From assembly GCA_964603925.1 (NCBI GenBank), contig CAZRWX010000001.1, positions 5,489-69,488 on the forward strand: a DNA stretch of 64,000 nucleotides, given 5' to 3'. A model generated the notes under the pieces. It searched no databases. It was not told where the DNA came from and worked only from the letters and a program-made list of their open reading frames with translations. Made by a program: the position numbers and the translations under genes. The DNA is from an uncultured Bifidobacteriales bacterium. Its GTDB lineage: Bacteria > Fibrobacterota > Fibrobacteria > UBA11236 > JADFYW01. The stretch's first letter is position 1; each line of letters opens with the position of its first letter. Positions 2,129 to 23,822 of this stretch are shown in pieces.

Positions 2129-2130
2129 AC

Positions 2131-2850
2131 ATGATTAAGATTATAATCAAGTTTGTCAGGGGTATGACTCTCCCGGTCTTTCTGGGATTAAACCCTGTGG
2201 TATGGTCTCAGAAGGCAAATACAACCTCCAGTCCTGTGGATTCCAGGCAGATATTGGAGGAGGGGGTTCAAGCCTATTTTCAGGGCTCTTACTCCAAAAG
2301 CTTGTACTTTCTTATTGAAGTATTAAAGGACACCGCCCTGGAACAGGAATACCAAATTATCCGCTGGGAGTACAGCGCTATATCGGCCGCCATGCTGGGG
2401 CGTGATTCTGTGTCAGCAGTGTATTTTCTTAATATACTCAATCTCAACCCCAACTGGACCCTGGCCAGTAACCAGAAGCACCCCAGCGTTGTAAGTAATT
2501 TTAATAAAGCCCGTTACCAGCTGGACAGCCAAAGGCTTAAAAGTCAGCTGGGTGTAATTGCCCCGCCGCTGCCTCAGCCTTTTAATTTTAAGCGCCTTAT
2601 GCCCCTGGGCATACCACAGTTTGATGACCGCAAGCCCCTGCCCGGCCGCATTCACCTTTTGACTCAGGTTTTAGGCAGTGCTATTGCCATTTACTCAAGT
2701 TACCAAATAACCCGTATACTTAACGGGCAAGACGAGATCACCATGTCCACCTCTAGACGGATAAAAAATTATCAGAACATCGGGCTTATTGGCATAAGCC
2801 TCAGCATTACCAGCTACGGGATATCTATCTGGCAAAGGAACACCAAATGA
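2131..2850 (+). CDS. Hypothetical membrane-associated protein (N-terminal signal/anchor, TPR-like helical region, C-terminal TM)
   Basis: The ORF sits 3 bp after the kinase stop and overlaps the next gene by 4 bp, consistent with translational coupling. N-terminal hydrophobic LPVFLGLNPVVWS; C-terminal IGLIGISLSITSYGISIW. No family recognised. Confidence 0.5.
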   Translation: MIKIIIKFVRGMTLPVFLGLNPVVWSQKANTTSSPVDSRQILEEGVQAYFQGSYSKSLYFLIEVLKDTALEQEYQIIRWEYSAISAAMLGRDSVSAVYFLNILNLNPNWTLASNQKHPSVVSNFNKARYQLDSQRLKSQLGVIAPPLPQPFNFKRLMPLGIPQFDDRKPLPGRIHLLTQVLGSAIAIYSSYQITRILNGQDEITMSTSRRIKNYQNIGLIGISLSITSYGISIWQRNTK

Positions 2851-4682
2851 ACGGTATTATACTGGCAGCATATCTGCAATTTAAAGAAAATAAGCAAAAG
2901 AAATTTCCTATTCAAAGGATGGTTACCACCATAGGCAGGGGCATGAGCAACGACCTGAGCCTGGAAGACCCTACTATATCCAGTTTACATGCCAATATCG
3001 TACAAAAAGAAAACACTCACGCAATTTTTGATATGGGCAGTCGTAATGGCTTAAGCGTCAATGGTAAAAAATGTAAAGAATGTGTTTTAAATCATGGTGA
3101 TGAAATACAGTTAGGCAGTATTTACCTGATTTATTATAACCAGCGGGTTCTCGATGACGGCGATACAGGCCTGGACAATCTGCTTACATCCATTCAAACT
3201 ATGGATTTCAACTCATCTAAAAAGGAGATCCTTCAAACTGTTACCAGCCTTAAAGAAAAAGAGGTCGGTTTTCAGTTCCTGCTCTCAGGTATAGCCGCCA
3301 TGGGTAAAAGTCTGAATATTAATGAACTTATCAATAACCTGCTGGGCCAGGTGTTGGACTTACCCGACATGGGCAATGCCTGGGTGTTGGAACATACCGG
3401 TAAAAAGTGGAATCTTATGGCGGGTAAAAAGGAGAGCGTGGATCTTCAGCCTCAGCTCTTTACCTATCTGAATACCCATGAGAAATGCACCTTCCAGTAT
3501 CAGGACAAAGCCTACGCTTCCTTCCCAATTAAGATACATGTAAATGGCTCCCTGGGGGCAGTACTTACAAACACTCAACCACGTAAATTCCCGTCTCAGC
3601 TCATTATGGGACTTTGCTTTTATGCAGCTCAGATGTGGCAAAACCTTATTCTTCAGGAAAAAACCACTAAAAAAATTGTTAAAGGGCTGGTGGACGAAAA
3701 TACCGCTCTCAAAAAAAGGCTTGAAGAGCACACCGATTGGGTGCCCATGGATGATGTCACGAAAAAAATTGCCCTGCAGGTGGAAAAAATGGCCCCATCA
3801 GAGCTGCCAATAATGATAACGGGGGAAACAGGAGTAGGCAAATCTTATGTAGCCCGCCATATACATAACATGAGTACCCGCAGGGGCAAAGCTTTCATCA
3901 CCATAGATTGCGCTACTATCCCAAAAGATCTTATTGAAAGTGAGCTCTTCGGCCATGAAAAAGGTGCCTTTACCAGCGCCGACAAGCTGAAAGCCGGAAA
4001 AGCCGAAGCCGCCCAGGGGGGCACCCTTTTTTTAGATGAAGTTGGAGAGCTCAAGCCGGATACTCAAGCCAAGCTACTGCGCCTGGTACAAGACAACGAA
4101 TATGAGAGAATAGGAGGCACAGAGCTGCTGGCTGCCAATGTGCGCATCCTGGCTGCCACCAACCGTGATTTGGAGACCCAGGTTAAATCCGGCAAATTCC
4201 GCAAAGACTTGTACTATCGGTTGTGTGTGCTCCATATACATTTACCCCCCTTAAAAGAGCGGAAAAATGAAATTGAATACCTGGCCAACTTCTTTATAAA
4301 ACGCGCAGCGCCTCAGGAGGATATCGTCATCCCTGGAGATGTCATGAAAATTATGAGATCCCACCCCTGGCCCGGCAATATACGTCAGCTGGAGAACGCG
4401 GTAAAAAGGGCCTGCGTATTAAATTCTGAGGGGGAAATAACCCTGGAGCACCTGGGGCTGAAGGAAGGTTATGAGGATGAAACCCGCAGCGGCAATACTG
4501 ACATCACCACCCTTAGCCTGGCAGATATAAGAGAGCGCAGCGAAAAGAGCGCCCTAAAAGAAATTCTCGCCAAAAACAAAGGCCACCTTTCAAAAACATC
4601 AACCCAGCTGGGTATCGCCCGCAATACTTTAACCGCTCTGCTTAAAAAATACAACCTGGACAAAGACACCATTACCGGCTGA
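2847..4682 (+). CDS. Sigma-54-dependent transcriptional activator with N-terminal FHA domain (FHA-GAF-like-AAA+-HTH)
   Basis: FHA signature (TIGRGMSNDLSLEDPTISSLHANI...GSRNGLSVNGKK). AAA+ sigma-54 interaction domain (Walker A GETGVGKS; ESELFGHEKGAFTSA, a GAFTGA variant; Walker B LFLDEVGEL). C-terminal Fis-type HTH (TSTQLGIARNTLTALLKKYNL). Confidence 0.9.
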   Translation: MNGIILAAYLQFKENKQKKFPIQRMVTTIGRGMSNDLSLEDPTISSLHANIVQKENTHAIFDMGSRNGLSVNGKKCKECVLNHGDEIQLGSIYLIYYNQRVLDDGDTGLDNLLTSIQTMDFNSSKKEILQTVTSLKEKEVGFQFLLSGIAAMGKSLNINELINNLLGQVLDLPDMGNAWVLEHTGKKWNLMAGKKESVDLQPQLFTYLNTHEKCTFQYQDKAYASFPIKIHVNGSLGAVLTNTQPRKFPSQLIMGLCFYAAQMWQNLILQEKTTKKIVKGLVDENTALKKRLEEHTDWVPMDDVTKKIALQVEKMAPSELPIMITGETGVGKSYVARHIHNMSTRRGKAFITIDCATIPKDLIESELFGHEKGAFTSADKLKAGKAEAAQGGTLFLDEVGELKPDTQAKLLRLVQDNEYERIGGTELLAANVRILAATNRDLETQVKSGKFRKDLYYRLCVLHIHLPPLKERKNEIEYLANFFIKRAAPQEDIVIPGDVMKIMRSHPWPGNIRQLENAVKRACVLNSEGEITLEHLGLKEGYEDETRSGNTDITTLSLADIRERSEKSALKEILAKNKGHLSKTSTQLGIARNTLTALLKKYNLDKDTITG

Positions 4683-4686
4683 CAAT

Positions 4687-6396
4687 ATGAGCATACAAAA
4701 GAATATTATTTACCTGACCCGGGTGCTTGTAGTTATGGGTCTTTTGTTTGTGCCGGGGTGCAACCTGTTTCAGAATATTGAGCCGGATACTGTGAACCCC
4801 GTAATACTTAAATTCACTGATGAACGCACCGAGATGCCCCTGACCGGCCGCAGCCTTATAATAAACAATACCACGGTAATTACACACGACAGCCTTGGCA
4901 CAGCCACCCTGGGCAAGTTCACCGCCGGGGCCCATACTTTTGTAATACAGGATAATGGCATATACACCGATTCGGCCTACTTCCCAAATACTGTCACCAT
5001 TAATATATCCGCCAAGTTCACCAGTTATACCATCAGGATGAAAAGGAACTATAGAACTTGGGGCTATGTGGCTTTCAATACAATTTACCCCCCACTCACT
5101 GTACCCAACACCCAGGAGCTTAATTTAAAAGGCAAAAAGGAGCTGGACCTGCTGCGGCCGGTATATTACTGGTACCTGAATGATTCTCTGATTGGCAAAA
5201 CCTACAACCCCGAACACAAGATATACCTGGCTGATTCACTGTCTCAATTTATATACAAAGTGGTTGTACTGACAGATGAAGTGGAAGCCGATAATCATGA
5301 CACCATAGGTACAGCCACCAGCAGCCTGCTGCCTAATCAATACCCCAGAAATAACAGGCAGCCAACTCTCTCTTTTTCAGGGTTTCAGCAACCGGGCTGC
5401 CAGCCCGGAAAGTTAGAGTTTGTAGTTCATGACCCCGATGGAGATCTTACTAACAATGCTATGGGAAGCCCTGGAATGGAAATCAGCATACCCGGGCGTC
5501 CCGGGCAGTGGAAGGTTAAATTCACCTATGTATCAAATGACTCCATAACGGGTTATTTTTCTCTGGGTTCACTGGATTACTCCCAGGACAGCACTGTGCA
5601 TATATATGCAGCCTATTTTGAAAAATATGACAGTTTGAGTAATTTTAAAGCCCGACGTTACCAGACAGACACTGTCTTTTCAATCAACCCCTATACTGTG
5701 CCCAATCTCGCTATCAGCGGGCTCAGTGGCACGCCATACTATTGGGGGGACACTATAAGGACTGTGCTCGAATCTAACACCCAGCTCATTTATAATAACC
5801 CAGGTACCGCGCGTCGTTTTTTCATGTACAACGACACCTCTATTATCAATCTAAGCCCCATGATACTTAGAAGTGAATCTTTAACTATGACTATACCGGA
5901 TAATTTTGATTTCCACAAGCTGACAATAACAGGCCGCGACACAAACACTCTTTATACCCGTTTTACCGCTTTGACTACATGCAACGATACAATAGAAGCC
6001 ATTGACAGTATCACCTTTATTAATCCGGGTATTGTCACTGACCAGGGGGATACAGTCAATATCCCCCTTATTAACACACCTGACACAGTAAGCGACACCC
6101 TGGGGTTCTCCATAACTAACAACCCCAACAAGGCCTTTCACTCATTTGTATTAAACTGGGGTGATGGTTCACTTGAAGAGATCCTGCCCAGCGACGGCAG
6201 CAACTACTACCGCCCAGGGCATAATTTCATTGTTAAAGACATTAAAAGGTATTATGAAACTATTGAAGGCAGCAGTTTTATATTTATACATGGCAAGTTG
6301 CGTATTACCGCCAGGAGAGACGTCGGCTACGCGGGTATTCAATCTCTGCTCACAGTTTCAGTAAAGTATCAGGTCCCCGATACTACTGGTAATTAG
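4687..6396 (+). CDS. Predicted lipoprotein with PKD-like domain, function unknown
   Basis: Signal peptide plus lipobox LLFVPGC. A C-terminal FVLNWGDGS motif resembles the PKD-domain WDFGDGS signature. Starts 5 bp after the activator gene's stop (4682), so probably in the same operon. Confidence 0.6.
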   Translation: MSIQKNIIYLTRVLVVMGLLFVPGCNLFQNIEPDTVNPVILKFTDERTEMPLTGRSLIINNTTVITHDSLGTATLGKFTAGAHTFVIQDNGIYTDSAYFPNTVTINISAKFTSYTIRMKRNYRTWGYVAFNTIYPPLTVPNTQELNLKGKKELDLLRPVYYWYLNDSLIGKTYNPEHKIYLADSLSQFIYKVVVLTDEVEADNHDTIGTATSSLLPNQYPRNNRQPTLSFSGFQQPGCQPGKLEFVVHDPDGDLTNNAMGSPGMEISIPGRPGQWKVKFTYVSNDSITGYFSLGSLDYSQDSTVHIYAAYFEKYDSLSNFKARRYQTDTVFSINPYTVPNLAISGLSGTPYYWGDTIRTVLESNTQLIYNNPGTARRFFMYNDTSIINLSPMILRSESLTMTIPDNFDFHKLTITGRDTNTLYTRFTALTTCNDTIEAIDSITFINPGIVTDQGDTVNIPLINTPDTVSDTLGFSITNNPNKAFHSFVLNWGDGSLEEILPSDGSNYYRPGHNFIVKDIKRYYETIEGSSFIFIHGKLRITARRDVGYAGIQSLLTVSVKYQVPDTTGN

Positions 6397-6523
6397 TAGT
6401 CTGTTTAAAATGCATTAATTTTAGACATTGCCCCTTCGACTATCCGTTCTTCGAACGGACGCTCAGGGTGACAGAGATAGCGGCCGTATTTTAGACAGAT
6501 ATAAGTAGCACACAGTCAGGGAC

Positions 6524-9112
6524 CTACAAACCACCAGCTCCATACTGCTGATAAACCCGCTCCAAATCTGCAAGACAAAAATGGCCGCCCTTTTTAATTG
6601 CCAGGCCCGCCTTTAAAAGAGTTACAGCCAGGTCATTGAAGCCTTTACCATGCCAGTACCCACCCAGATACTGCAGGGCTTTAATTTTAAGAAGATTGTA
6701 GTCGGCGGGAATAAAAGTCTGTTTTTCCTCAAAAGCCAGTAGTTTGGTATACCAGATGCAAGCCTCTTTGGGGCTTCCCGCCTTCTCTTCCAGCTGGGCT
6801 TGTAGAAGCACTGTCTCTGGATGAACCTCCACCTGGGTCAGGCCAATTTTCAAGGCATTGCGCGCCACGTCATATTGCCCCAGCTTCATAAGGGCATGGG
6901 CCGTTTTGGCCGGCCCTATCTGTATTATATGTGGATCAGTATTTGTTTTTTCGGCTAATTCCACTGCCTGCATAAAGTATTCAACAGCTTGGGCATTGTC
7001 ATCCAGATCCAGATAAGCATGCGCCAGCGTATACAATGTAACAGGCGTTATATTATTATCAGCCTTAATTTGCTGTTCCAGGAGATCACGGTTTCGAATT
7101 TGCTTTTTGCGCGAAACTTCTTCATTATGATAACCCGTATGGATAATTTTAATATCCGTATATTCTACAGGTATCCCCGCCCTCTCCAGGGAAGGCAGCA
7201 CCTGCTCATGAACCGGAGACTCAAAACGTACATCAGGACGATTGGGGAACAACCTTACCTGATTAAAAAGTGAGCCGGTATTACCCCCATCAGCACTGTT
7301 CTGGACCAAAAAACCATAAGCCTTTAGGCCTTTTACAGACTTCCAGTCAGGACCAAAGTCCCGGGCTAAAAGAGCGGGTATGGCTACTTTATCCTTCTCA
7401 AGCAAAATGTCATCGGCATCAAGCCACATTATCCAGTTCCTCCGGGCGCTATCCAGGCTCACATTACGGGCCTGGCTGAAGTCATTTTGCCAGGGGGAGT
7501 TTACCACTCTGGCCCCAAAGTGCCGGGCCACCTGGATAGTATTGTCTGCCGACCCGGTATCTACTACTATAATTTCATCAAAAAGCCCCTGGGCACTTTG
7601 CAGACATTTAGTCAAGTGCTCCTCCTCGTCTTTAGCGATAATGCAAAGACTTAAACCTGGGGTAAGCGCCCCTGTGCCGGCGGGGCCCGCTTCAGGGGTA
7701 CTTGCAGCAGCCTGGTAAGTGTTTGCTTCACCGGGCCACGGCATGTCGGGGAACTGCGACCTGGCCTGGGAAAGGTATTGATTTACCGCGGCAGTATCTC
7801 CTGACAGCCTGATAGCATGAATAACTTTCTGGTAAATGTGGGGATTGCGTGCGGGATTAATTTTTAAAGCCTCCCGGTAGGCTCCCAGAGCCTCATCACC
7901 CCGGCCTAATGCCTCAAAGCATTCGCCCAGACCCGTCCATAACTCCACTACCTCTTTGTAGTTGACTTTCATTTTTTCAAACCATTCCACCGCTTCAGCA
8001 AAATTACCCTGGGCAATGAGGATGCGTGTAAGGAAGTGATAGGCATAAATTTTAACGGTGTCATATTGATTGGCTGTGCTGGAGTGTCGCAGGGGCATCT
8101 CTATAACCTGGACGAATATATCCCGGGCTTCGTTTAGCCTGCCCTGCTCCTGCAGGGCCTCTGCTTTATGAAAAAGGGGCTCTAACTTATTTTTGTCCAG
8201 TTCCCGGGCTTTGTCAAGCCATTCAATAGAATCCTGATAACGTTTAAGTTTTAAATAACCCAAACCTATATATATTGGAATAGTGGCATATACATCGCGA
8301 TTAATTTCCAGCAAATCGGGTATGGCAAAAGCCTTTTTATAGGCGCTGATACCTTTTTCCCATTGTTCCAGAATAAAGTAAGAATCCCCGCAGCTCATGG
8401 TAAAGGTTGGGTCTTTGCCAAGAAGGTCCCCCTCCTCAGAGGCAACCAGCTCCAAATTGCGTCTGGCCTTTTTCTTTTTGGCTTCATCATTCTCATAACC
8501 GGTATGGTGTATGATAGTTTCAACATATTTACAGTGAACGCCCAGCCGCGCGGCGCTGTATACAAACTGCTCATGCACCTTGCGCTCAAAACGGATATCG
8601 GGATGATTGGGGAACATGCGCACCTGCATAAAGCGCGCCCCCCAGGCCTGACCAGCCTGGGTATTAATTACCTGAAAACCAAAAATTCGATCCAAAGGGG
8701 CGGTCTTAAGTTTTAAAAACGCTGCTACCTGATCGGGGGGAATACGGTCATCAGCGTCCAGCCACAGCACCCAGGAGCAATTGGCCTTCTCCAGACTCTG
8801 ATTGCGCGCCAGACTGAAGTCACCCTGCCATTGGGTTTGGAACCAGGTAACATCTAGACCATTGAGGATATCCTGGGTACCATCTACAGAACCGGTATCA
8901 TTGATTATAATTTCGTCCGCAAACGGCAGAAAAGACTGAACCGCCCCTTCAATATTTTTAGCTTCATCTTTAACAATCATTATAATGGAAAGAGTATTGG
9001 GCGGATAGGGGAGTTTAAAGGGGCTTTTTATGCGGCCAAAAGCCTTGTTAATGTCCTTGGGCAGGCCGTCCCTGCCAGCCATGGAGGATATTTTAGAGCT
9101 GTACTTTTTCAC
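6524..9112 (-). CDS. Dual-GT2 glycosyltransferase with TPR repeats (GT2-TPR-linker-GT2-TPR), SunS-like GT-A domains
   Basis: Two GT2 domains: SIIMIVKDEAKNIEG...IIINDTGSVDGT...QWQGDFSLARN...WVLWLDADD and LSLCIIAKDEEEHL...IIVVDTGSADNT...PWQNDFSQARN...WIMWLDADD. TPR-like helical repeats sit between and after them. A Pro/Gly/Ala-rich linker (ASTPEAGPAGTGALTPG) separates the halves. Confidence 0.85.
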   Translation of the reverse strand: MKKYSSKISSMAGRDGLPKDINKAFGRIKSPFKLPYPPNTLSIIMIVKDEAKNIEGAVQSFLPFADEIIINDTGSVDGTQDILNGLDVTWFQTQWQGDFSLARNQSLEKANCSWVLWLDADDRIPPDQVAAFLKLKTAPLDRIFGFQVINTQAGQAWGARFMQVRMFPNHPDIRFERKVHEQFVYSAARLGVHCKYVETIIHHTGYENDEAKKKKARRNLELVASEEGDLLGKDPTFTMSCGDSYFILEQWEKGISAYKKAFAIPDLLEINRDVYATIPIYIGLGYLKLKRYQDSIEWLDKARELDKNKLEPLFHKAEALQEQGRLNEARDIFVQVIEMPLRHSSTANQYDTVKIYAYHFLTRILIAQGNFAEAVEWFEKMKVNYKEVVELWTGLGECFEALGRGDEALGAYREALKINPARNPHIYQKVIHAIRLSGDTAAVNQYLSQARSQFPDMPWPGEANTYQAAASTPEAGPAGTGALTPGLSLCIIAKDEEEHLTKCLQSAQGLFDEIIVVDTGSADNTIQVARHFGARVVNSPWQNDFSQARNVSLDSARRNWIMWLDADDILLEKDKVAIPALLARDFGPDWKSVKGLKAYGFLVQNSADGGNTGSLFNQVRLFPNRPDVRFESPVHEQVLPSLERAGIPVEYTDIKIIHTGYHNEEVSRKKQIRNRDLLEQQIKADNNITPVTLYTLAHAYLDLDDNAQAVEYFMQAVELAEKTNTDPHIIQIGPAKTAHALMKLGQYDVARNALKIGLTQVEVHPETVLLQAQLEEKAGSPKEACIWYTKLLAFEEKQTFIPADYNLLKIKALQYLGGYWHGKGFNDLAVTLLKAGLAIKKGGHFCLADLERVYQQYGAGGL

Positions 9113-11820
9113 CCCCCCACTCCCCCATTGGATATTTTAGCCTTTAGCTGGGCCAGTAACTTACCCAAATCTGCTGAAGGCTGTTTTATATTCTGCAGGT
9201 CCCCGTAAGCCTTTGCCAAATCCCCATAGTCATTCATCCATTCAGTAAAGTATACCAAAAGTGTAGGGTCCCCCGAGTATGTATGCAGAGCCTCAATATA
9301 GATTTTGTAGGCTTCCTCTGAACCAGGCATAAGGGCATTAAGGCATTTACCCCTGAAGGCCTCTATAACACCTGAGGACATATGTATGTCCGGATTATTT
9401 TCAAAGGTCTCCAGCACCTCGGAATAACGCTCATTTATCATTAATTGTTCCAGATAATTTTCCCACATCACCATGTCATTATTAAAGCGGCTTAAATACA
9501 GCCTGAAATATTTTAGAAGATCTTCAAGGGCCCCCGCCTTCTCAAAAACCTCCACCGGAATTTTATAATCCAGGGGGAAGTTTTGAAGACCTCCGTCAAT
9601 AAGCTCCTTCAGGCACTCCAGAGACGGGTGCCCGGGTTTTAAAGCCCCGCCCCCTGACTGCTCAAGCAGTACCATATACCCCAGCACATTTCTGCGGATA
9701 GTGGTATTATCTGAAGCAAAACGGGATACTTGTATGGGTTTACTTTTTATAATTCTGAATAATTCCAATGCCTTTGGATAATCTTGAGCATCCAGGGCTT
9801 TTTTTGCCAGCCAGTACCAGGAGAAAAGCCCCCCGGGGTTCCAATGCCGGGCTACATCGTACCATTTCTGCGCCTGGGCACTCTCCCCCATTTTATCATA
9901 AGCATTAGCAATAAGCTCAGGAAAAATTTTCACATCTTCCTGCGCTGGTGTCACTTCCAGGTTACTCCAGACCCCCAGTTGCCGTAAAACACCTTTGTAA
10001 AACTCTATTGCCAGTTTATACTCCCCCCGCTGATAATGGCAATTTCCCATTTCCATATTTACCACAGGGTCTTTCGGATGCTCTTTTATCTCATCCTGCA
10101 TAAGAGTAAAATTTCTGTTCAACTTTTTTTCCCTGTTTTCAGACAGCTCATAACCAGTATGGATTATGGTTATATCTACATCCTCCACTGGTATATTTTT
10201 CTCTTTTAGTGAGGTACCCAGCTGTTCATGTACTTTACCCGTAAACTGTATACCCTTATTATTGGGAAACAGACGGATTTGACGAAAAGCCTCCCGCTCT
10301 CCAGTATCTCTGGGACTCTCCACAATAAAACGATAAGCACATGAACTATCTATATTCTGATTTTCCCTGCTATTTGTAATTTGCCTTACCTGCTCCCAGA
10401 ACCCATCAGGGAGCCTGTCATCAGCATCCAGCCATAACAGCCATGGTTTATCAGACTGGTTTAAAGAAAAATTACGCGCTGCGGAAAAATCATTATTCCA
10501 CTGATAGTGGTATGTATTGATATCATTTTCCTTTAAAAAGCTTAATGTTCCATCACTGGAACCGGTATCTACAACTATCAATTCCACCTGTTCGCCTGGA
10601 ATCTGGGCAGCAAGTTCTTTAAGGTTCTGTTCCTCATTTTTCACAATCATACACACAGACAGATTAGGGCCCGAACCACCTTCAGACACCGGCGCCCTGT
10701 GCTCATGACTCTGTTTGTGCAGATCCTGTTTCGGGATCTTCTGCTCCGGCAGTTTCTGCTCCGGCAGTTTCTGCTCCGGCAGTTTCTGCTCCGGCAGTTT
10801 CTGCTCCGGCAGTTTCTGCCGCACATGCCTCAATACTTCCCGTGCGCCATCGAGAATAGAATCCCAGTCTGTGGGAATTGTCCATGGCGGTATGGGAAGT
10901 GAAAGCGCACTTTCCAAACACTTAGCCGCATTGCGGAAATTACCCAGAACAAACTCAACCTTGCCGAACTCAAACATGTACTGAGGATTATGTGACCCTA
11001 AATCCAGATTTTTCTTAAAGAAAGTTACGGCTTCAACAGTATGCCCGGCCAGGGCCTTACACTGACCAAGGTAGATGTGGCTGGCAAGATAGACATCCTC
11101 CTGCTGATCACGGGAACCCGAAGTCTGGATTATACGCTCATAGAGATCATTGGCCCGGTCAACATCCCCCCTTACCTGAATAGTACGGGCCAGGGAAAAA
11201 AGAATTGAAGTAGGCGCTGCAGGCTGTGCTGCCAGCTGTGTCATTATATTCAAATTTCGTTCAATCTTTGTTGTTAGAGAGGCTTCATCGCTGTAACCTA
11301 CATGGAGTATTTCGCAAGGAGCCTTAATGCCCAATAATGCCTTTTGTTTAATAGAAAGAGACAGGGACTCGTGAATGGGATTAGTAAAAAACAGGCCCAA
11401 TCCGTTAGGTACCAGACGTATCTGGTCAAAACTGTTGGTACTGCCGTCAGCTTGAGGAGACTTAACTGAGAATAAATAAACATGGTGCCTGGACAGCGTG
11501 CTGACATTATTAATAAACCACTGGCTGGTATCCGGCAGGAGCCTGTCATCGGCATCCAGCCACAGCACCCACTGCCCCCCACACTGTTCCAGCCCGAAAT
11601 TACGCGCCTTGGAAAAATTATTATCCCACTGCCGTCTGAAAACCCTGGCCTGACGACCGGTAGCAATATCAATGCTATTATCGGTACTGCCTGTATCTAC
11701 CAGTACCACCTCAGTGGCCACCTTTGCCCGTAAGCTTTCCAGAGAGTCAAAAAAACCTGGAAGCCGGACTTCTTCATCCTTAACGATAATAGTGATTGAA
11801 AGAAGGGGGTTTGGTGTCAA
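9109..11820 (-). CDS. Dual-GT2 glycosyltransferase with TPR repeats and (KLPEQ)n linker, paralogue of the 6524..9112 gene
   Basis: Two GT2 domains: LSITIIVKDEEVRL...VVLVDTGSTDNS...RQWDNNFSKARN...WVLWLDADD and LSVCMIVKNEEQNL...LIVVDTGSSDGT...YQWNNDFSAARN...WLLWLDADD. TPR-like repeats are present. The interdomain linker reads KLPEQKLPEQKLPEQKLPEQKLPEQKIPKQ. Its 4-bp overlap with the downstream gene suggests translational coupling. Confidence 0.85.
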   Translation of the reverse strand: MTPNPLLSITIIVKDEEVRLPGFFDSLESLRAKVATEVVLVDTGSTDNSIDIATGRQARVFRRQWDNNFSKARNFGLEQCGGQWVLWLDADDRLLPDTSQWFINNVSTLSRHHVYLFSVKSPQADGSTNSFDQIRLVPNGLGLFFTNPIHESLSLSIKQKALLGIKAPCEILHVGYSDEASLTTKIERNLNIMTQLAAQPAAPTSILFSLARTIQVRGDVDRANDLYERIIQTSGSRDQQEDVYLASHIYLGQCKALAGHTVEAVTFFKKNLDLGSHNPQYMFEFGKVEFVLGNFRNAAKCLESALSLPIPPWTIPTDWDSILDGAREVLRHVRQKLPEQKLPEQKLPEQKLPEQKLPEQKIPKQDLHKQSHEHRAPVSEGGSGPNLSVCMIVKNEEQNLKELAAQIPGEQVELIVVDTGSSDGTLSFLKENDINTYHYQWNNDFSAARNFSLNQSDKPWLLWLDADDRLPDGFWEQVRQITNSRENQNIDSSCAYRFIVESPRDTGEREAFRQIRLFPNNKGIQFTGKVHEQLGTSLKEKNIPVEDVDITIIHTGYELSENREKKLNRNFTLMQDEIKEHPKDPVVNMEMGNCHYQRGEYKLAIEFYKGVLRQLGVWSNLEVTPAQEDVKIFPELIANAYDKMGESAQAQKWYDVARHWNPGGLFSWYWLAKKALDAQDYPKALELFRIIKSKPIQVSRFASDNTTIRRNVLGYMVLLEQSGGGALKPGHPSLECLKELIDGGLQNFPLDYKIPVEVFEKAGALEDLLKYFRLYLSRFNNDMVMWENYLEQLMINERYSEVLETFENNPDIHMSSGVIEAFRGKCLNALMPGSEEAYKIYIEALHTYSGDPTLLVYFTEWMNDYGDLAKAYGDLQNIKQPSADLGKLLAQLKAKISNGGVGG
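10726..10815 (-). repeat. Five perfect tandem copies of a 15-bp unit (ctgctccggcagttt) plus one degenerate flanking copy, in-frame inside a GT gene
   Basis: Direct reading shows copies at 10741-10755, 10756-10770, 10771-10785, 10786-10800 and 10801-10815. 10726-10740 (ctgtttcgggatctt) is a 10/15 degenerate copy. On the minus strand this encodes (QKLPE)5. Confidence 0.9.
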
Positions 11821-11872
11821 AATTATTTACGAATTATGAAAAACAGGCATTAGCCAGCTATAGAGTCCGTTC

Positions 11873-14800
11873 TCAGCCGTGAAATGAATCTACAATATTC
11901 TTAACCTGTTCCAAACCTGGATCTATCTGCAAAGCAGAACTGAGACGGTCTTTAACCTTGTCCTCCAGACCCAGGATTCTGGCATTTTCCCACAAATTAA
12001 GAAGACTGTCCTGGTCCAGCGGGTTAATTTCCACTGCTGTAGTAAACAGCCTGTGGGCATCCTGATACATGCTTTGCTTATGGGCAATAATACCCAGGCC
12101 ATTATAAGCGGCAAAGCAATCCACCCTTTGCTCTACCAAATCCAGGTATATAAGAATAGCGGGGCTTAATTCCCCTTTGTTTAAATGCTCTTCTGCTTTG
12201 GATAAAAGATCGTTAATATTGTCAATAGATTCAAAATTCTTAATGAGATAGATTTCTTCACCACGCGCCTTTATTTGATGTAGGATTTCGGTGGCCTCCC
12301 GGTTATGGGCGTCTGTACTAAGGAAACGGTCGAGAAAAGGCCGGAATTTATCGATAGATTTCAACTTAAGGGCTACATCAAAAGCATTTATGAGGGCATC
12401 AGTATAAATAGGGTGAATCTCCAGAGCTTTGGAAAAATAATCCCAGGCCCTGTCATAATCTCCCTCATACCAGGCTACCAGCCCCATATTATTAACGGCT
12501 CTGAAATTCTGCGGGTCCTCTTGCAGAATACTTTCAAAAACCTCCCGGGACTTCTGCATCATGCCTTCACGGATAAGGTTTTCTCCGGCAAGGTTTCTCT
12601 CCCGGCTGGATATTATCTTCTCCGGATCCCAGCTACCCTCCCGGGACTCAAGCTTGAGCTGATCGTAATAGTGCTTGATTTCTTGAAAATCTTTGCTTTT
12701 ACCGGGGTAGGAGAAAACCTTTTCCAGAGTACCCAGCACCTCACTTTTATTACCTAAAACTATGCCGGCATCGCAATAATTAATGAGAACATCCTCATCA
12801 AGCAGGTTCAATTCAACGGATTTCTTAAAATGATCCCACGCCATTTTAACATCACCGCATTCAAAGGCAATAATGCCCAGATAGTTATAACAAAAAGCCT
12901 GATGATGTCCGGAGTTCAGGATCTCTTCCAGAAGATCCAACGCTTCACCATAGCGCTTTTCAGAGATAAGATTTTCCACATGTACCCGCCAATGCTCTTC
13001 AGTATCAGCTTTAGGCGCTGTGCGTTTTTTCAGCTCTCCTAAAAAAACCGGATGAAAGGGGAATGTTACCAAAAAAGCATTTAAACATTTAGCTACCTGA
13101 TCCTGCGCACAGGCCTTTTCCAATACATCTATTATATTATTGGCAATATCGGTGTCTGTGGGGTTAAGCTCCAGAGCTTTGCGAAATAGCTGAAGGGCAT
13201 CTGTGTGATTATTATCATGAAAAGAGATTATACCCAGACCATTATATACCTCTGAAATAGAATCATCTAAACCCTGAGCTTTGAGGAATAGATTCCTGGC
13301 TGTATCGAAATCACCCTTTTCGTAGAAATCATTGGCCTCACTGACCAAGTCGCGCACATCAGGTTTTTCTTTTTCCGAAACAATATCGTTCAGAGCCGCA
13401 GCCCCATGGCTCCATTTTTCTTTAAACTTTACCATGTTTTCCTTCATCATCTGCTGCCAGTCTACGCTGTTGCTGCTGAAACTGGCACTGCCGAAATGAA
13501 ATACGAAAGAATCATGAGCAATAAGAAGGCGGTAACCCATATATTTGGCCCGAAGACAATAATCGTCATCCTCAAAATTGCCCTTGCCATAGCGCTCGTC
13601 AAAAAAGCCGATTCTATCAAAGGCCAGCTTGGGAATTAACATGCAAAAACCCGTTATACGCTCAAACTCCATAGCCTTTAAATCATTCTCTTTTTGCCAT
13701 TTGCTCCCAAAATCTTGAATCTCCAATTCAGTATTGAGTTTGGTATCGGGTATAACCTGAGGTCCGCTGATATTATTGGACCGGGGCCCTATTATGCCAA
13801 TCTGTGAACTGCACTCGGACAGGCGCACCATATTCTCCAGCCAGCCAGGCACAACAATGGTGTCGTTATTAAGTACCATGAGGTAATCACCCTGCGCAAC
13901 TTTCAGCCCCTGGTTCCAGCCCTTTGCCACACCCAGATTTTTCTCATTGATAATAACTTTTGCTCCCGGGATAGAATTAAAGTATTCGCCTGTGCCATCG
14001 CTGCTGCCATTATCTACCAATATCAGTTCAAAACTCTGACGGGTATAAGCGGTTATGGATTCAATACATTTTTTTGTAAGGGCCAATTGATTAAAACCAA
14101 GAATAACTATAGAGACACATTTCTTTAGACTATGATCTACATTGCGGTTGTAGCAAACTACCTGTAAACCCTGTTCTGTTCCAGCGCAGCCTTCCTGGGG
14201 CACGCCCGAATAATCTTCCACAGAATCTACAGCAAACCCCGCTTGCCAGCCAGCATTCATCAGAAGTGCTTTTAACTGCTCTGGTTTAATATCTTTACTT
14301 GTTTGCTTACCGTCCGCTGTTTGAGTAACATAAAGCAGTATGGCTTGTTTCAGGCCTGGCATTTTATTGCGCAGTAGCCCAACACGAAGACCTGCCTCCC
14401 CCAACTCGCCGGGAAAAACCCTTATAACCGCCATATCCTGGTCTTCAGCTTTGACCTCTTGCCCGGAAAGACTGAAGACTTTGTCATTTGCTAAATCAAT
14501 AAATACGGGGCTTTCGGCGTTTTTTAAGTGCCGGGCCAAACTCTGGGGAAAACCTGATAAGTCTACCCGGGTAGTACCTTGCTCCGGAACTGTAATTGAT
14601 ACGGCCCCATTATGCTCCAGAACGGGTATATCATCAGACTGGACCTGGTCTGTAAAACAGGTCGTAAATCTTTTTAACAGGCTGGGAATATCAATAGATT
14701 CTTTGAGTTGTTTCTCCAGCCATAACTTATCGCATATAAAACCTAAATTATTGAAACTTTGACAGGTATCTGAGTCTGTAGTGAGAGGAATGCGTGTACA

Positions 14801-16072
14801 CTGAATATGGTTGTCAGGAATGAACCGGTGGTAAGACTGCTGAAAGAAAGCCGAGATACTAACCCCCGCAGGTACAAAAAGAAGATTTTCCTGCTTTATA
14901 AAACTTATGGCCATCCCCAAGCCGTCTATCAAAGACTGCTCGGGTGATAAATCTACTTTTAAGCCCTTGAAATCGCCAACACCTGACGCCGCAAGACCTC
15001 TTTGAAAATTGATAATAAAAACCTGCCCGGCCTCTCGAGCAGGTATGGAAGCCAGAGTTTGCTGTAAAAGATTTTTTGCGTCCTTTAACTCTGCTCCTAC
15101 ATAAACAACCCACCCCAGAGAGACTTTTTTTAAATTTTTACTTTCAGCATTTTGCAAAGACAATTCCTCGATAATATTTTTTGAAGGCTGAAACCAGTTT
15201 ATGCCCCACATAACCTCAGGGCCTGGTATTTTATCATGGTTACCATAAAACTTAAATAATTTGCGGTAAAGGTTATCTGTTGATTCCTGCACCAAAGCAT
15301 TTACTTTTTGATTTGGTTCTGTTTTAAAACTTTTTTGGCCCTCATGATGAATAAAGGTATCTGTAGCCACAACCAGTTCATACCCCCGCTGCCGTAAACG
15401 CCAGCTTAATTCCAGGTCATCGTTACCAAGAAACAGGTTCTCATCCATACCCTCCAGAGAATCAAATACCCTTTTGCTTACCATCAAACAAAAACCGATG
15501 AGTAGTTTGGTAATCAGACCCTTGCCTTTATTTGCTGTCGTTAAAGACTGGGAAAGAGACTCAAATGTAACCCCCATGCCCAGACGTTCTGAGGTATGTA
15601 ATTCGTATTTTTGCAAACCTGCTACATAATCAGAAACCGGCCCAACGGCTCCCACTTTTGGGCTATCAAAAAATGCAGCCATTTTGGGAAGCCACCCCTG
15701 GGTGACAATAGTGTCAGGGTTAAGAAAAACCAAATACTGCCCATGGGCCCCTTTTGCTCCCAGGTTACATGCACGGGCAAAACCCAGATTTTCAGGGCTT
15801 AAGACAGATTTAAGCCCTTTTCCAGATTGTAAGGATTGTAAAAAAGCTGGAGTACCATCACTTGAATTATTATCTACAACAATAACTTCTAAACCCATGT
15901 TATCATCACTGACAGATTTTAAGCACAGCTTTAATGTTTGCAGACAATTGTAAGAAACAACAATAATGGAATATTTAACGGCCACAGCCCCTCTCCGACA
16001 GAGTTTAGTATCACCAAAGCTTTTAATTAAAGTAGAACTTTCCGGCCCGGAACTGCAAACTCCCTGTTCCAT
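11873..16072 (-). CDS. Giant multi-domain glycosyltransferase (GT2 - unknown middle domain - GT2 - C-terminal TPR array), 1399 aa
   Basis: N-terminal GT2 (KYSIIVVSYNCLQTL...VIVVDNNSSDGT...YLVFLNPDTIV). Second GT2 (VSIVILGFNQLALTKKCIESI...LILVDNGSSDGT...YLMVLNNDTIVVPGW). About 500 aa of C-terminal TPR repeats (e.g. AWDHFKKSVELNL, AWDYFSKALEIHP). The true start may lie downstream of the first Met. Confidence 0.85.
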   Translation of the reverse strand: MEQGVCSSGPESSTLIKSFGDTKLCRRGAVAVKYSIIVVSYNCLQTLKLCLKSVSDDNMGLEVIVVDNNSSDGTPAFLQSLQSGKGLKSVLSPENLGFARACNLGAKGAHGQYLVFLNPDTIVTQGWLPKMAAFFDSPKVGAVGPVSDYVAGLQKYELHTSERLGMGVTFESLSQSLTTANKGKGLITKLLIGFCLMVSKRVFDSLEGMDENLFLGNDDLELSWRLRQRGYELVVATDTFIHHEGQKSFKTEPNQKVNALVQESTDNLYRKLFKFYGNHDKIPGPEVMWGINWFQPSKNIIEELSLQNAESKNLKKVSLGWVVYVGAELKDAKNLLQQTLASIPAREAGQVFIINFQRGLAASGVGDFKGLKVDLSPEQSLIDGLGMAISFIKQENLLFVPAGVSISAFFQQSYHRFIPDNHIQCTRIPLTTDSDTCQSFNNLGFICDKLWLEKQLKESIDIPSLLKRFTTCFTDQVQSDDIPVLEHNGAVSITVPEQGTTRVDLSGFPQSLARHLKNAESPVFIDLANDKVFSLSGQEVKAEDQDMAVIRVFPGELGEAGLRVGLLRNKMPGLKQAILLYVTQTADGKQTSKDIKPEQLKALLMNAGWQAGFAVDSVEDYSGVPQEGCAGTEQGLQVVCYNRNVDHSLKKCVSIVILGFNQLALTKKCIESITAYTRQSFELILVDNGSSDGTGEYFNSIPGAKVIINEKNLGVAKGWNQGLKVAQGDYLMVLNNDTIVVPGWLENMVRLSECSSQIGIIGPRSNNISGPQVIPDTKLNTELEIQDFGSKWQKENDLKAMEFERITGFCMLIPKLAFDRIGFFDERYGKGNFEDDDYCLRAKYMGYRLLIAHDSFVFHFGSASFSSNSVDWQQMMKENMVKFKEKWSHGAAALNDIVSEKEKPDVRDLVSEANDFYEKGDFDTARNLFLKAQGLDDSISEVYNGLGIISFHDNNHTDALQLFRKALELNPTDTDIANNIIDVLEKACAQDQVAKCLNAFLVTFPFHPVFLGELKKRTAPKADTEEHWRVHVENLISEKRYGEALDLLEEILNSGHHQAFCYNYLGIIAFECGDVKMAWDHFKKSVELNLLDEDVLINYCDAGIVLGNKSEVLGTLEKVFSYPGKSKDFQEIKHYYDQLKLESREGSWDPEKIISSRERNLAGENLIREGMMQKSREVFESILQEDPQNFRAVNNMGLVAWYEGDYDRAWDYFSKALEIHPIYTDALINAFDVALKLKSIDKFRPFLDRFLSTDAHNREATEILHQIKARGEEIYLIKNFESIDNINDLLSKAEEHLNKGELSPAILIYLDLVEQRVDCFAAYNGLGIIAHKQSMYQDAHRLFTTAVEINPLDQDSLLNLWENARILGLEDKVKDRLSSALQIDPGLEQVKNIVDSFHG

Positions 16073-16765: not shown

Positions 16766-19700
16766 ATGAAGTTTGGTGATTTTTTTAAACCTCAATGGAA
16801 GCAGAGTGACCCCCGTATCAGAGCAGAAGCCATAAAAAGCCTTGATGAGGAGTTTCACCTTGATGATCTCACAACTATAGCAATTTCAGATGAACTGTTA
16901 GACAATAGCAGATTAGCTCTCAAAAAGATTAACAGTGAAACATCGCTAATTAAAATAGCTGAAAATGCCCAGGAAACGGCCATAAGGGAGAGTGCTCAAA
17001 AAAAGCTTAGTGAAATATGGACTGGTTTTATCAAATCCAATGATAATGCAAATGAGGCCATTTCATTAATTAAAAAAGTAAAAGATCTTAAATGTCTGGA
17101 GGATATAGCTCTAAACAGCAAGTCGCTGGATGTCCGTAAAGCCGGTTTGGATATGCTTGTACATGCCTCCTCAATTTTAAAAGTAGCCCTTAACGAAAAG
17201 GATGAAGAGCTGGCTTTTAAAGCCTTAAGCAAGATTTCCAAACCTGCTCAATTGGAGATTGTCAGCAAAAAAGCCCTTAACAAGTCCCTAAGACAGAAGG
17301 CTAAGGAGTTATTCGAAAGCCAGACCAATGCAGGCGAGTCTTTATCAGAGGAGCAGGTGCGATCTGCACAATTGGAGCTTCTCTGCCGCACAGTTGAGTC
17401 TCTTGAACAACCAACTAATTGGGAGGATGCCGCCCGCAAATTAAACGAAGCTAAAACAACCTGGGGCTCCCTGGTATCAGAGGCACAGGCAATTCCTGAA
17501 GCACTCAGCCAGCGTTTTGAAATAGCTCTGGAGCAATATAAATCTGCCGAGCTAAAGCATTTAGAAAAAGAGCAAATGCGTCAAAAAGACCGCGATTATC
17601 AGCTTAAGCTGGGGGAGAAGAGGTCCATCTGCAACAAAATAGATGAACTTCTAATTATCAAAAATAAAAGCGAACGTAATGAGCAAATCAGCACTCTGAT
17701 AGACAGGTGGCGTGCTCTAGGTGATCTTTCCGAGGAGGACGCTCAACTTTTAGATGCGCGTTTTAAAAAAGCCACCGAGACCTTTCAAGGGCAGCTCAAG
17801 GAGTTGTCTCAAAAAGAGACAAAAACAGATAATGTTCAAGCTCTTCTTGAGGATGCAAAACAGCTGGCAGAGCGACCGGTATCAGATGGCTGCCAAACCC
17901 AGATAAAAGACTTAAAGGCGGCCTTAAACCGTTTGCCCAGTGAAAACCAGACACCAGAAGTTACTCAAATTGAGGGCCTGATTTCTCAGATTGAAGATAC
18001 TATTCAAAAACATGATCAGCAGATAGTTGACGAGGAAGCTGCCAATTTTATTAAGCTGAAAGAAGTCATACCTCAAATTGAAACATTAGTTGACAATCCA
18101 GATCTCCTGGAATCCGAGAGGAAATTCCGAGATCTGATTCATCAATGGCGGGCTCTTCATCCCTTTAATCATCTCAATTCAGAGTCCCAGGCAGAATACG
18201 CTTCCCTCACTCAGGCTTTTGACAGCAATTGCGAAAGATACCGGGAAGCCCAGGAGTGGCTCAGGTGGTCTAATCTCAAGAAGAAGCAGGATATCTGCCA
18301 GCAGCTGGAGACATTCCTGGAGGCATCCGAGCCCAGAGAGCTCTATAAAAAGTTAAGAGAAATGCAATCAGAGTGGCGACAGGTAGGGCCGGTAAGCTGG
18401 GAGGCAAGCAAAGAAATATGGGATCAATATCGTAAACTAACAGACGAAATTTATGAAAAATGTCAGAGTTTCTTTAGCGAACTGGAGGAGGAGCGGAAAG
18501 CAAATCTTGAAGCTAAAAAAGAGCTTTGTACCCTGGTAGAAACCCAGATAGAGTCCACAAACTGGAAGGAATCAACCGAAATAATAAAAAAAGCCCAGGC
18601 ACAATGGAAGGACACTGGCCCTGTACCCAAAGAGCAGTCTGACTCAATTTGGGAGCAGTTCCGCAACTTGTGTGACAAATATTTTGACAAAAGGAAGCTA
18701 TACTTCGAAGAGCTGGAGTCTCAGAAGGACAGCAATTTTGGGAAGAAACTCGAACTTTGCAAATTAGTAGAAGACAATCAAGATTCAACTAATTGGCGTG
18801 AAACTGCTGAAATATTTAAAAAAGCCCAGGAGGACTGGAAACAAATAGGCCCTGTTCCTAAAGAAAGAATGGAGGAGATATGGGACCGTTTTCGCAAGGC
18901 GTGTGACCATTTTTTTAATGCCCGGGATATGTATTTTAAAACTCTGGATGCCAATAAAGACGAAAATCTTGCACAAAAAGAGGCTTTAATTGAACAGATA
19001 CTTAACCTGGAAAATATTGAGTCTGATCAGGAGAAATTCGATCTGATTAAAAAGGCCCAGGCTGAATGGAAGCTGATTGGCCCCGTAGAAAAAGATAAAG
19101 CTGACCTGATATGGGAAAGGTTTCGTAAACCAATAGATGATTTTTTTGATAAACGCAAATTAATAAATAAAGAGGAAAACCAGCATAGAGAGGAAAATCT
19201 GGGAAAAAAGGAGGAGCTGTGCCAGCAGGCAGAAACCCTCAGCGAGTCCAAAGATTGGAAAAAAACCTCTGAAGAGCTTAAAAAACTACAGGCATCCTGG
19301 AAACAAATAGGCCCAGCGGCCCGTGATAAGGATAAGGCTATCTGGATGCGTTTTCGCTCGGCATGCGATGCTTTCTTCAGCAATATGAAAGACCATTACC
19401 GTCAGTTGGATGAAAAAAGATCACTAAATTTAAATGTCAAAGAAGATCTCTGTTTTCAAGCAGAACGGTTAGCTGGTTTTGTAGAATTTAAAGACAATGA
19501 CACCGATTCAACTCAAGAAAATGGCAAAGACTGGCCTCTAGCCGCTCAAAGTGTTAAAGAGCTTCAAAAAAAATGGAAGGAAGTTGGGCCGGTCCCCAGG
19601 TCTCAGAGTGATGAGCTCTGGCAGCGCTTTCGTATGGCCTGTGACTTTATTTTCGATCAAATCCGGGCCGTAGATTCTGAAGAGTCTGTGAATGAAGAAG

Positions 19701-19912
19701 CCAATCTGGCAGCCCGAAGGGAGATCTGCGAAGAGGCAGACCGTATTTCCCACCAGGTGCATACTGATGCACAGCTTACTAAAATCAAAAACCTGCAAAA
19801 GGAATGGCGCAATCACGGTCCCATACCAAAAGAGGAATTCAAAGAGCTCTGGCTTAGTTTTAAAAAGTCCTGTGATATTGTGCTTGCGGGCGACGAGAGA
19901 CTAGGGGAATAA
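16766..19912 (+). CDS. DUF349 repeat protein, 1048 aa, highly charged, at least 9 tandem ~68-aa helical repeats
   Basis: Recurrent units of the form (N/D)W(K/R)E..E(I/L)(I/F)KKAQ..WK.(I/T)GPVPKE....IW.(R/Q)FR..CD.FF..R, e.g. NWKESTEIIKKAQAQWKDTGPVPKEQSDSIWEQFRNLCDKYFDKR. The N-terminus MKFGDFFKPQWKQSDPRIR also matches my recollection of the DUF349 (PF03993) family. Confidence 0.8.
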   Translation: MKFGDFFKPQWKQSDPRIRAEAIKSLDEEFHLDDLTTIAISDELLDNSRLALKKINSETSLIKIAENAQETAIRESAQKKLSEIWTGFIKSNDNANEAISLIKKVKDLKCLEDIALNSKSLDVRKAGLDMLVHASSILKVALNEKDEELAFKALSKISKPAQLEIVSKKALNKSLRQKAKELFESQTNAGESLSEEQVRSAQLELLCRTVESLEQPTNWEDAARKLNEAKTTWGSLVSEAQAIPEALSQRFEIALEQYKSAELKHLEKEQMRQKDRDYQLKLGEKRSICNKIDELLIIKNKSERNEQISTLIDRWRALGDLSEEDAQLLDARFKKATETFQGQLKELSQKETKTDNVQALLEDAKQLAERPVSDGCQTQIKDLKAALNRLPSENQTPEVTQIEGLISQIEDTIQKHDQQIVDEEAANFIKLKEVIPQIETLVDNPDLLESERKFRDLIHQWRALHPFNHLNSESQAEYASLTQAFDSNCERYREAQEWLRWSNLKKKQDICQQLETFLEASEPRELYKKLREMQSEWRQVGPVSWEASKEIWDQYRKLTDEIYEKCQSFFSELEEERKANLEAKKELCTLVETQIESTNWKESTEIIKKAQAQWKDTGPVPKEQSDSIWEQFRNLCDKYFDKRKLYFEELESQKDSNFGKKLELCKLVEDNQDSTNWRETAEIFKKAQEDWKQIGPVPKERMEEIWDRFRKACDHFFNARDMYFKTLDANKDENLAQKEALIEQILNLENIESDQEKFDLIKKAQAEWKLIGPVEKDKADLIWERFRKPIDDFFDKRKLINKEENQHREENLGKKEELCQQAETLSESKDWKKTSEELKKLQASWKQIGPAARDKDKAIWMRFRSACDAFFSNMKDHYRQLDEKRSLNLNVKEDLCFQAERLAGFVEFKDNDTDSTQENGKDWPLAAQSVKELQKKWKEVGPVPRSQSDELWQRFRMACDFIFDQIRAVDSEESVNEEANLAARREICEEADRISHQVHTDAQLTKIKNLQKEWRNHGPIPKEEFKELWLSFKKSCDIVLAGDERLGE

Positions 19913-20720: not shown

Positions 20721-20739
20721 GAAATTATACCTGTGTTTC

Positions 20740-23813: not shown

Positions 23814-23822
23814 AAAAACTCC

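Follow-up and report, generated by a model that had tools for sequence, protein, structure and literature searches.

Does a short repeat between the two modules of a glycosyltransferase measure out the distance between them, as a spacer whose length could change by gain or loss of units, or has it simply grown where extra residues are tolerated? The question is raised by a gene in the 64-kb stretch of DNA analysed here (the window), from an uncultured member of the Fibrobacterota. Five perfect 15-nt units, CAGAAACTGCCGGAG, lie head to tail at 10744..10818 on the minus strand and encode (QKLPE)x5, aa 335-359 of the product. They form the strongest tandem repeat that TRF detects in the window (10739..10819, period 15, 5.4 copies, 100% matches, 0 indels, score 162), and perfect lag-15 periodicity spans the whole 81 nt of 10739..10819. 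The array's perfect lag-15 self-match is 66 nt; the longest lag-15 runs in 20 Markov-simulated windows were 10-14 nt and the analytic expectation for a 66-nt run is ~1e-33. Chance cannot account for 81 nt of perfect periodicity. Nor is such an arrangement common among relatives: across 960 kb of related loci TRF found no perfect array with at least 4 copies and a period divisible by 3, and five perfect copies are a rarity in this setting. A donor copy elsewhere, e.g. in a mobile element or as a source of gene conversion from within the window, was considered and discarded, since no further match to the 15-mer exists in the window, even when 2 mismatches are allowed (0.09 expected).

The array is in frame with a 903-aa ORF (9109..11820, minus strand), which reads QKLPE five times and then QKIPK. 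The five identical in-frame 15-mers of the original prediction are thus corroborated by TRF, exact 15-mer matching and translation (its 10726..10815 covers the same array, taken in the KLPEQ register, together with the KIPKQ unit). Its point that a unit length divisible by 3 avoids a frameshift also stands, the frame being preserved at any copy number, and by the same token on/off phase variation is dismissed for this 15-nt coding unit.

The host gene encodes two GmaR/SunS-like GT2+TPR modules. Its ORF can be aligned over the full length with 27 orthologues, and the TTG start at 11820 is backed by invariant orthologue residues upstream of a shorter database start. Module 1 (10813..11820, minus strand; aa 1-336 from Pfam, alignment and AlphaFold2) consists of a GT2 domain, placed by Pfam at aa 8-116 with an invariant DADD at 89-92, and a TPR/helical domain whose last helix is modelled by AlphaFold2 at 319-336. 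Module 2 (9109..10662, minus strand, stop codon included; aa 387-903) comprises a GT2 domain that begins at strand 387 in the AlphaFold2 model and a long TPR/helical domain, and it resembles the GmaR GT domain and SunS/ThuS. PF00535 matches the protein in two stretches (E = 1.2e-36), and D89, A90, D91 and D92 in one module and D465, D467 and D468 in the other, giving both a DxD-type motif, are invariant across 28 sequences. Pfam TPR families likewise match both halves, with helical repeats modelled at 179-336 and 560-897. The best sequence match in the PDB is the GT domain of GmaR (E = 8.6e-24), SunS also being matched (E = 1.8e-16), and the top Foldseek matches are SunS/ThuS (E ~1e-13); this similarity suggests a protein- or peptide-directed glycosyltransferase. 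The protein has no signal peptide in its sequence and is cytoplasmic.

Joining the modules is a linker (10663..10812, minus strand; aa 337-386, from AlphaFold2 and orthologue comparison). The array had been described as sitting exactly between two catalytic halves; it does belong to the inter-module linker, but the TPR domain of module 1 intervenes and the catalytic domains are not its direct neighbours. With a 28-sequence alignment as input, AlphaFold2 gives a pLDDT of ~90 in both modules and of 34-37 across about aa 340-382, a segment that includes most of the array and, at <50 throughout, is modelled with no secondary structure. The linker is accordingly predicted to be intrinsically disordered. 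Among the 27 orthologues (37-46% identity) the linker is anywhere between 9 and 106 aa long, with a median of 34 and no periodicity in length, and its sequence is not conserved, Pro, Arg and Gly being abundant. The linker in the window is 56 aa long, 31 aa when the five units are subtracted, and without them would appear to be of typical length for the family. KLPEQ itself is absent from all 27 orthologues, a comparison that had been proposed with the original prediction, and from an 862-aa paralogue; at the DNA level the genes of the closest orthologues are free of tandem repeats. The linker of one orthologue, P0021, contains a tandem duplication of its own, independent and 14 aa in length. 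Some relatives in the Fibrobacteria have the C-terminal module alone in the same operon slot, the N-terminal module being dispensable there. Given the predicted disorder, the 9-106 aa range and the solo C-terminal module, inter-module distance seems to be unconstrained.

A proline-containing peptide present in several copies could conceivably act as a multivalent short linear motif, docking in a TPR groove or recruiting a partner, and so serve as pseudo-substrate, autoinhibitor or scaffold. TPR domains bind extended peptides, and in the AlphaFold2 model the array begins right after the last helix of the module 1 TPR domain. The same model nonetheless leaves the array undocked, at pLDDT <50, and the pentapeptide is missing from the orthologues and the paralogue, as noted above. 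A selected motif, moreover, would not normally have nucleotide-identical copies, and the odds of a docking role are slim indeed (the TPR region of GmaR has been discussed as a protein-interaction scaffold; PMC9638930).

At the nucleotide level the unit has features that would favour slippage. CAGAA microhomology is present at both of its edges, self-complementary CTGC/GCAG tetramers lie within it, and as single-stranded DNA the array folds at -24.8 kcal/mol versus -15.1 +/- 2.3 for shuffles (z = -4.3); all three lend weight to the earlier suggestion that a perfect repeat of this kind is slippage-prone. The sense-strand RNA across the array also folds well (-45.6 kcal/mol, z = -4.7), and an 89-aa ORF on the plus strand (10715..10984), reading (FCSGS)n in its repeat part, crosses the array. 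Either could be taken to mean that the signal derives from the antisense ORF, or from a structured RNA or regulatory element in the glycosyltransferase mRNA. Yet the ORF has a TTG start, lies wholly within a well-supported gene and is served by no promoter-like site (0 against 1.2 expected); with the array missing from the orthologues, conservation of the ORF's repeat part is impossible. The ORF was rejected as a candidate on these grounds. An Rfam scan across the gene gave a best E of 0.24, far below gathering score, and the RNA folds strongly because a self-complementary unit is repeated. An antisense or RNA origin has a negligible claim.

Evidence of history comes from the sequence alongside. 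On the C-terminal (3') side of the array three degenerate units continue in register (10699..10743, minus strand), QKIPK, QDLHK and QSHEH, with 10/15, 9/15 and 7/15 identity to the 15-nt unit, so that in-register identity along the array and its flank runs 15,15,15,15,15,10,9,7,4. Together the three have 26 of 45 positions identical; the maximum for such a sum at 3066 codon-aligned control positions in three GT2-TPR genes was 24. Where a single degenerate sixth unit had been reported, the degenerate flank is real, and what needs amending is the count, to about three units in register. To judge from this alignment they are older, decayed copies, and three of them in register mean that the array expanded in more than one episode. 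The proposal of a recent expansion is in keeping with the perfect copies and the gradient of decayed units beside them.

The array is, we consider, quite probably a young, lineage-specific coding minisatellite that arose by replication slippage in a disordered, length-tolerant tether and is close to neutral in effect. Its 5.4 copies at 100% identity, with a 15-nt unit in a supported 903-aa frame, are what an in-frame coding minisatellite should have. Replication slippage would have duplicated 15 nt of linker-coding sequence, in an event likely seeded by the 5-nt CAGAA direct repeat flanking one unit and assisted by small CTGC/GCAG hairpins. Growth of the array to its five identical copies would have followed, and the decayed copies alongside were presumably left by a previous round of slippage. 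A unit of 15 nt would keep the reading frame, and the added 20-25 residues would be tolerated because a disordered tether is free to vary in length and in sequence. For the protein the result would be a longer, charged, Pro-punctuated flexible tether joining two independently folding modules, and selection for a longer linker may have played a part.

No second sequence of the locus, from a strain or a close species, was present in the protein, genome or metagenome collections searched. Metagenome DNA scans with the flank plus one unit, a query meant to pick up alleles of one copy or more, and with two units gave 0 matches each. In the genome collection, which holds species representatives, a single-protein scan returned no relative; a scan with an alignment returned 78 loci, none above 45% identity. 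The only entry for the same gene in the protein database is P0001, which likewise has five copies; it sits on a 72,014-nt NCBI contig and is probably from the same assembly as the window. The contig index has no exact-protein record for the 903-aa product or for P0001 (a linker-centred 148-aa protein query gave no scored match, missing P0001 itself too).

The copy number of five rests on a single assembly, and this bears on whether collapse or expansion in a de Bruijn graph has distorted the number or the perfection of copies in a repeat that does exist. The k-mers common in metagenome assembly are shorter than the 81 nt of the perfect array, and perfect arrays longer than the k-mer may be miscounted; having P0001 as sole record, and that probably from the same assembly, is compatible with such an error. 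Distortion is nevertheless unlikely. At 81 nt the array fits within a typical read of 100-150 nt and so can be spanned by reads, the frame is kept and decayed copies flank the array in register, as in a real locus, and the surrounding gene is intact along the whole of its orthologue alignment.

The notion that the linker works as a spacer 'ruler', as originally predicted, has its model in type IC HsdS, for which Price et al. in 1989, a study cited in PMC12707154, reportedly described two versus three 12-bp in-frame repeats, in EcoR124 and EcoR124/3 respectively, as changing the spacer of the DNA target. There, as here, a short in-frame tandem repeat separates the two functional halves of a single polypeptide, and in HsdS its copy number sets the spacing of the halves. 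The HsdS repeat, however, is a structured helical spacer whose halves must fit a fixed DNA geometry, whereas the present array is predicted to be disordered, is punctuated by proline and varies without constraint in length among orthologues. Judged against an EcoR124-type ruler, neither a rigid structured spacer (pLDDT 34-37, Pro every fifth residue) nor a constrained or quantised spacer length among the 27 orthologues was found. Being predicted to be disordered, with Pro at every fifth residue, the array would not be able to set a fixed distance. The ruler is further contradicted by the lack of conservation of orthologue linkers and by the missing N-terminal module in some relatives. The original prediction had allowed that a similar low-complexity linker in orthologues would argue for a simple structural linker, and Pro/Arg/Gly-rich linkers are what the 27 orthologues have.

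As an evolvability locus the ruler would be an adaptive length-variable tether, with frequent slippage altering module reach and cooperation on the substrate, so that the glycan or glycoprotein produced would vary in a heritable but reversible way. The hairpin-forming unit, a multiple of 3 in perfect slippage-prone copies, would suit it, as would repeated expansion episodes at one spot, the independent linker duplication in a second family member and the HsdS precedent. But predicted disorder and the regular prolines exclude a rigid helix, orthologue linkers of 9-106 aa are unconserved, some relatives lack the N-terminal module altogether and no variant allele was present in the collections searched. 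The protein is also cytoplasmic, unlike the surface proteins in which coding VNTRs usually face diversifying selection. Overall an adaptive tether is decidedly unlikely, and its most specific version, a selected hypermutable 'tether-length dial' by which unit gain or loss changes which or how many substrate sites the two GT2-TPR modules modify, is very improbable. If copy number did vary and alter the enzyme, a cytoplasmic glycosyltransferase would have an unusual contingency mechanism that preserves the frame, operating via linker length and not on/off.

A young coding minisatellite, by comparison, has ready parallels. Neisseria Lip/H.8 has AAEAP pentapeptide repeats, and here too the unit is a pentapeptide. 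More generally the array resembles coding VNTRs in having short head-to-tail units, a multiple of 3, within a low-complexity or disordered segment, of the kind that slipped-strand mispairing generates and resizes with the frame intact (the Ser-Asp repeat regions of staphylococci are also in-frame coding repeats in disordered protein segments; PMC3324548). The known coding VNTRs are mostly in proteins that are secreted or at the cell surface; their copy-number polymorphism is documented and they often matter for immunity or adhesion, whereas the host here is a cytoplasmic enzyme, with only five copies known from one assembly. The array is of little importance in itself, and a 'ruler' or contingency function is unsupported. 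Its value is as a clean, datable example of disordered linker growth by slippage, a young perfect array beside its own decayed predecessors, and given more genomes or reads it could become a VNTR strain-typing marker for an uncultured Fibrobacterota lineage.

The host family is arguably of more interest than the repeat, being made up of GmaR/SunS-like GT2-TPR enzymes with two modules, encoded in a multi-gene cluster that is conserved in Fibrobacterota; the literature search returned nothing specific on this family in Fibrobacteres or on in-frame linker repeats. Each module shares with GmaR, the Listeria flagellin O-GlcNAc transferase, and with the glycocin S-glycosyltransferases SunS/ThuS the order of a GT2 (GT-A) domain followed by a TPR/helical domain. 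Unlike them, the host has two tandem modules on a disordered tether and is without the antirepressor domain; identity in fold alignments is 17-22%, and no flagellin, glycocin or other recognisable acceptor gene lies near the host gene. E. coli K4CP (the K4 chondroitin polymerase) and Pasteurella PmHS2 (a heparosan synthase), at ranks 7-15 of the fold matches, likewise have two GT2 domains in one chain, and with that arrangement the geometry between domains could matter. Their domains, however, pack together without a long disordered tether or TPR, and the TM-scores here are 0.17-0.29 (query-normalised).

Neighbouring genes include those for a Ser/Thr kinase, an FHA-sigma54 activator and a DUF349 protein, as well as Tol-Pal genes. 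Upstream is a 1399-aa GT2-GT2-TPR gene (11873..16072, minus strand), the first of an apparent three-gene operon, and downstream the two-module GT2-TPR paralogue of 862 aa (6524..9112, minus strand), whose start has 4 nt in common with the 903-aa gene. As had been remarked of this paralogue, its linker at the equivalent place is non-repetitive and composed of Pro/Gly/Ala. The pair of the 903-aa gene and its paralogue is kept in two related loci, L001 and L002, and the three-gene order recurs in a third, L005.

A tandem repeat, visible directly in the plus-strand sequence of 10726..10819, constitutes an in-frame minisatellite, a familiar type of feature of which this is a fresh example. It lies in the predicted disordered linker between the two GmaR/SunS-like modules of a GT2-TPR glycosyltransferase encoded by an uncultured Fibrobacterota bacterium. 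Read on the minus strand, which is the coding one, the unit CAGAAACTGCCGGAG stands in five head-to-tail copies at 10744..10818, and no further occurrence, with up to 2 mismatches allowed, is found elsewhere in the window (0.09 expected). TRF ranks the array top among the window's tandem repeats (10739..10819, period 15, 5.4 copies, 100% matches, no indels, score 162), and its perfect self-match at lag 15 runs for 66 nt, against an analytic expectation of ~1e-33 and a maximum of 10-14 nt in simulated windows (n=20). The perfect five-copy 15-bp repeat of the original prediction is borne out by these measures; the array is real and chance is ruled out. The copy number of five is that of one assembly only, and a perfect array of 81 nt is open to miscounting if the assembler's k-mers were shorter than the array, a length that single reads can span.

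The array lies inside a minus-strand ORF of 903 aa with a TTG start (9109..11820), and encodes five copies of QKLPE (aa 335-359) followed by QKIPK, the same array, in the same frame, as that earlier described in the KLPEQ register. On/off phase variation is ruled out because the unit is 15 nt. An antisense ORF across the array was also considered and rejected: it has no promoter-like site, a supported gene encloses it, and conservation of its repeat portion is impossible given that orthologues lack the array. No Rfam family matched; the strong RNA fold of the array (z = -4.7) follows automatically from repetition of a self-complementary unit. The sole near-identical protein entry (P0001, a single-member cluster from a 72-kb NCBI contig) is the same gene with the same five copies and a shorter called start. 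The start of that 866-aa record falls within the first GT2 domain, 37 codons after the TTG at 11820 (the difference being 11710..11820 (-)). The record is probably too short, the 903-aa form being correct, because I12, E16, L20, P21, S26 and L27, all upstream of its start, are invariant in 28 orthologues.

Pfam places two GT2 domains in the protein, at aa 8-116 and ~390-500, each followed by TPR repeats, and the layout is therefore (GT2-TPR)-linker-(GT2-TPR). The placement of the repeat 'between the two catalytic halves' accordingly holds for the modules but not for the catalytic domains themselves, between which TPR repeats also intervene. The two halves are homologous (31% identity, E = 9e-37) and both keep the invariant DADD motif. 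The closest solved structure by sequence is the Listeria GmaR GT domain (E = 8.6e-24), with SunS second, and by fold the top matches are SunS and ThuS, which are glycocin S-glycosyltransferases (E ~1e-13). Both modules are thus similar to GT2-TPR enzymes directed at proteins or peptides. In an AlphaFold2 model from a 28-sequence alignment (mean pLDDT 88.5, both modules ~90 or above), the last helix of the N-terminal module spans 319-336 and the first strand of the C-terminal module starts at 387, with aa 340-382 below 50 (block means 34-37) and devoid of secondary structure, so that the array, minus its first unit (aa 335-339), and the decayed copies beyond it fall within a predicted disordered tether. 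Proline at every fifth residue is incompatible with a rigid helix.

The next relatives, from Fibrobacterota MAGs or SAGs, are 45%, 43% and 41% identical, and all lack KLPEQ; the motif, raised earlier as one that orthologues might carry, is absent from all of the relatives. That it might be a linear motif for docking to the TPRs is unlikely both on this account and because the AlphaFold2 model leaves the array undocked. Nearest orthologue genes have no DNA-level tandem repeats, and in the 960 kb of 84 related loci TRF detects no perfect array that has at least 4 copies and a period divisible by 3. As to the variation in copy number between cells or strains that was central to the earlier idea, two exact-pattern scans of a metagenome collection, one of them designed so that an allele carrying even a single unit would match, gave zero matches, the source species is absent from the genome collection scanned, exact-protein look-ups matched no contig, and a linker-centred protein search did not retrieve even P0001.

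Immediately after the perfect units, and in register, come three 15-mers encoding QKIPK, QDLHK and QSHEH that are identical to the unit at 10/15, 9/15 and 7/15 positions, beyond which identity is at background (~4/15). Among 3100 codon-aligned control 15-mers from three GT2-TPR genes, 0.2% reach 10/15 and 1.1% reach 9/15, and the sum of 26/45 for the three exceeds the control maximum of 24 (3066 positions), which argues that the perfect array adjoins its own decayed predecessors and so for more than one round of expansion here. The young copies are on the N-terminal side. With identical copies beside decayed ones and KLPEQ absent from orthologues, the array is lineage-specific and probably recent, as had been proposed. 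A 5-nt direct repeat, CAGAA, flanks a single unit and would be microhomology of the type that seeds a first slippage duplication; the unit also contains self-complementary CTGC/GCAG tetramers, and the single-stranded DNA fold of the array is -24.8 kcal/mol vs -15.1 +/- 2.3 for shuffles (z = -4.3). Origin by replication slippage, near-neutral in effect, is most likely.

Between anchor columns L330 and L387 the linkers of 27 full-length orthologues are 9-106 aa (median 34), Pro-, Arg- and Gly-rich and unconserved; that of the window is 56 aa (31 minus the five units), within the family's usual range, and that of one orthologue, P0021, carries an independent 14-aa tandem duplication. Several Fibrobacteria have a 506-520-aa protein corresponding to the C-terminal module alone and starting exactly at the linker end, in the slot orthologous to the two-module gene (L003 4001..5563; L005 4001..5521); at the L005 locus it stands between a 1309-aa protein and a 780-aa two-module paralogue. 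The N-terminal module is thus facultative, having been lost or gained in evolution. Together with predicted disorder, the range of linker lengths, the lack of conservation and the free-standing C-terminal module indicate a passive, length-tolerant tether and tell against the spacer 'ruler' originally envisaged. An adaptive dial, with the array as a selected variable of tether length, is unlikely and has no positive support.

The gene is the middle one of three consecutive large GT2-TPR genes (6524..16072 (-); 1399, 903 and 862 aa) in an apparent operon, and distant Fibrobacterota genomes (L001, L002, L005) have either a pair of the 903/862 type or all three genes. No flagellin or glycocin gene is among those annotated within ~13 kb. 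Divergent genes adjoin the cluster at 386..6396 (+); besides proteins of 239 and 569 aa with no Pfam match, they encode a Ser/Thr protein kinase (386..2128) and an FHA-sigma54 activator (2847..4682). At L002 a kinase and a PP2C phosphatase (12632..14981) are inserted between the two GT2-TPR paralogues, which hints at a recurring tie of Ser/Thr phosphosignalling with these enzymes. Further along, a 1048-aa protein with seven DUF349 repeats (16766..19912 (+); E = 8e-142) adjoins a Tol-Pal cluster (19917..24521 (-)) of TPR, OmpA-family, PD40 beta-propeller, TonB_2 C-terminal-domain and MotA/TolQ/ExbB-family proteins, possibly CpoB/YbgF-like, Pal, TolB, TolA and TolQ respectively; the OmpA-family gene of this cluster contains a short repeat of GGTGGTGGCGGC (21256..21281, by TRF).

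L001, from the nearest relative (Fibrobacterota SAG AM-315-M03), has several arrays of 8-nt units, TGGAGTAA and CCAATACT, at 6447..6595 and 20137..21427, by coordinate outside called genes; the window has nothing like them. Its own second perfect in-frame tandem repeat (27876..27923 (+); 24 nt, 2.0 copies, 100% identity) encodes LGQSTNDT/LGQSTNDI just past an LSGC that resembles a lipobox, in the N-terminal part of a PDZ and S41 (C-terminal processing) peptidase (27782..29284), and is another recent duplication, probably in a flexible N-terminal tether.
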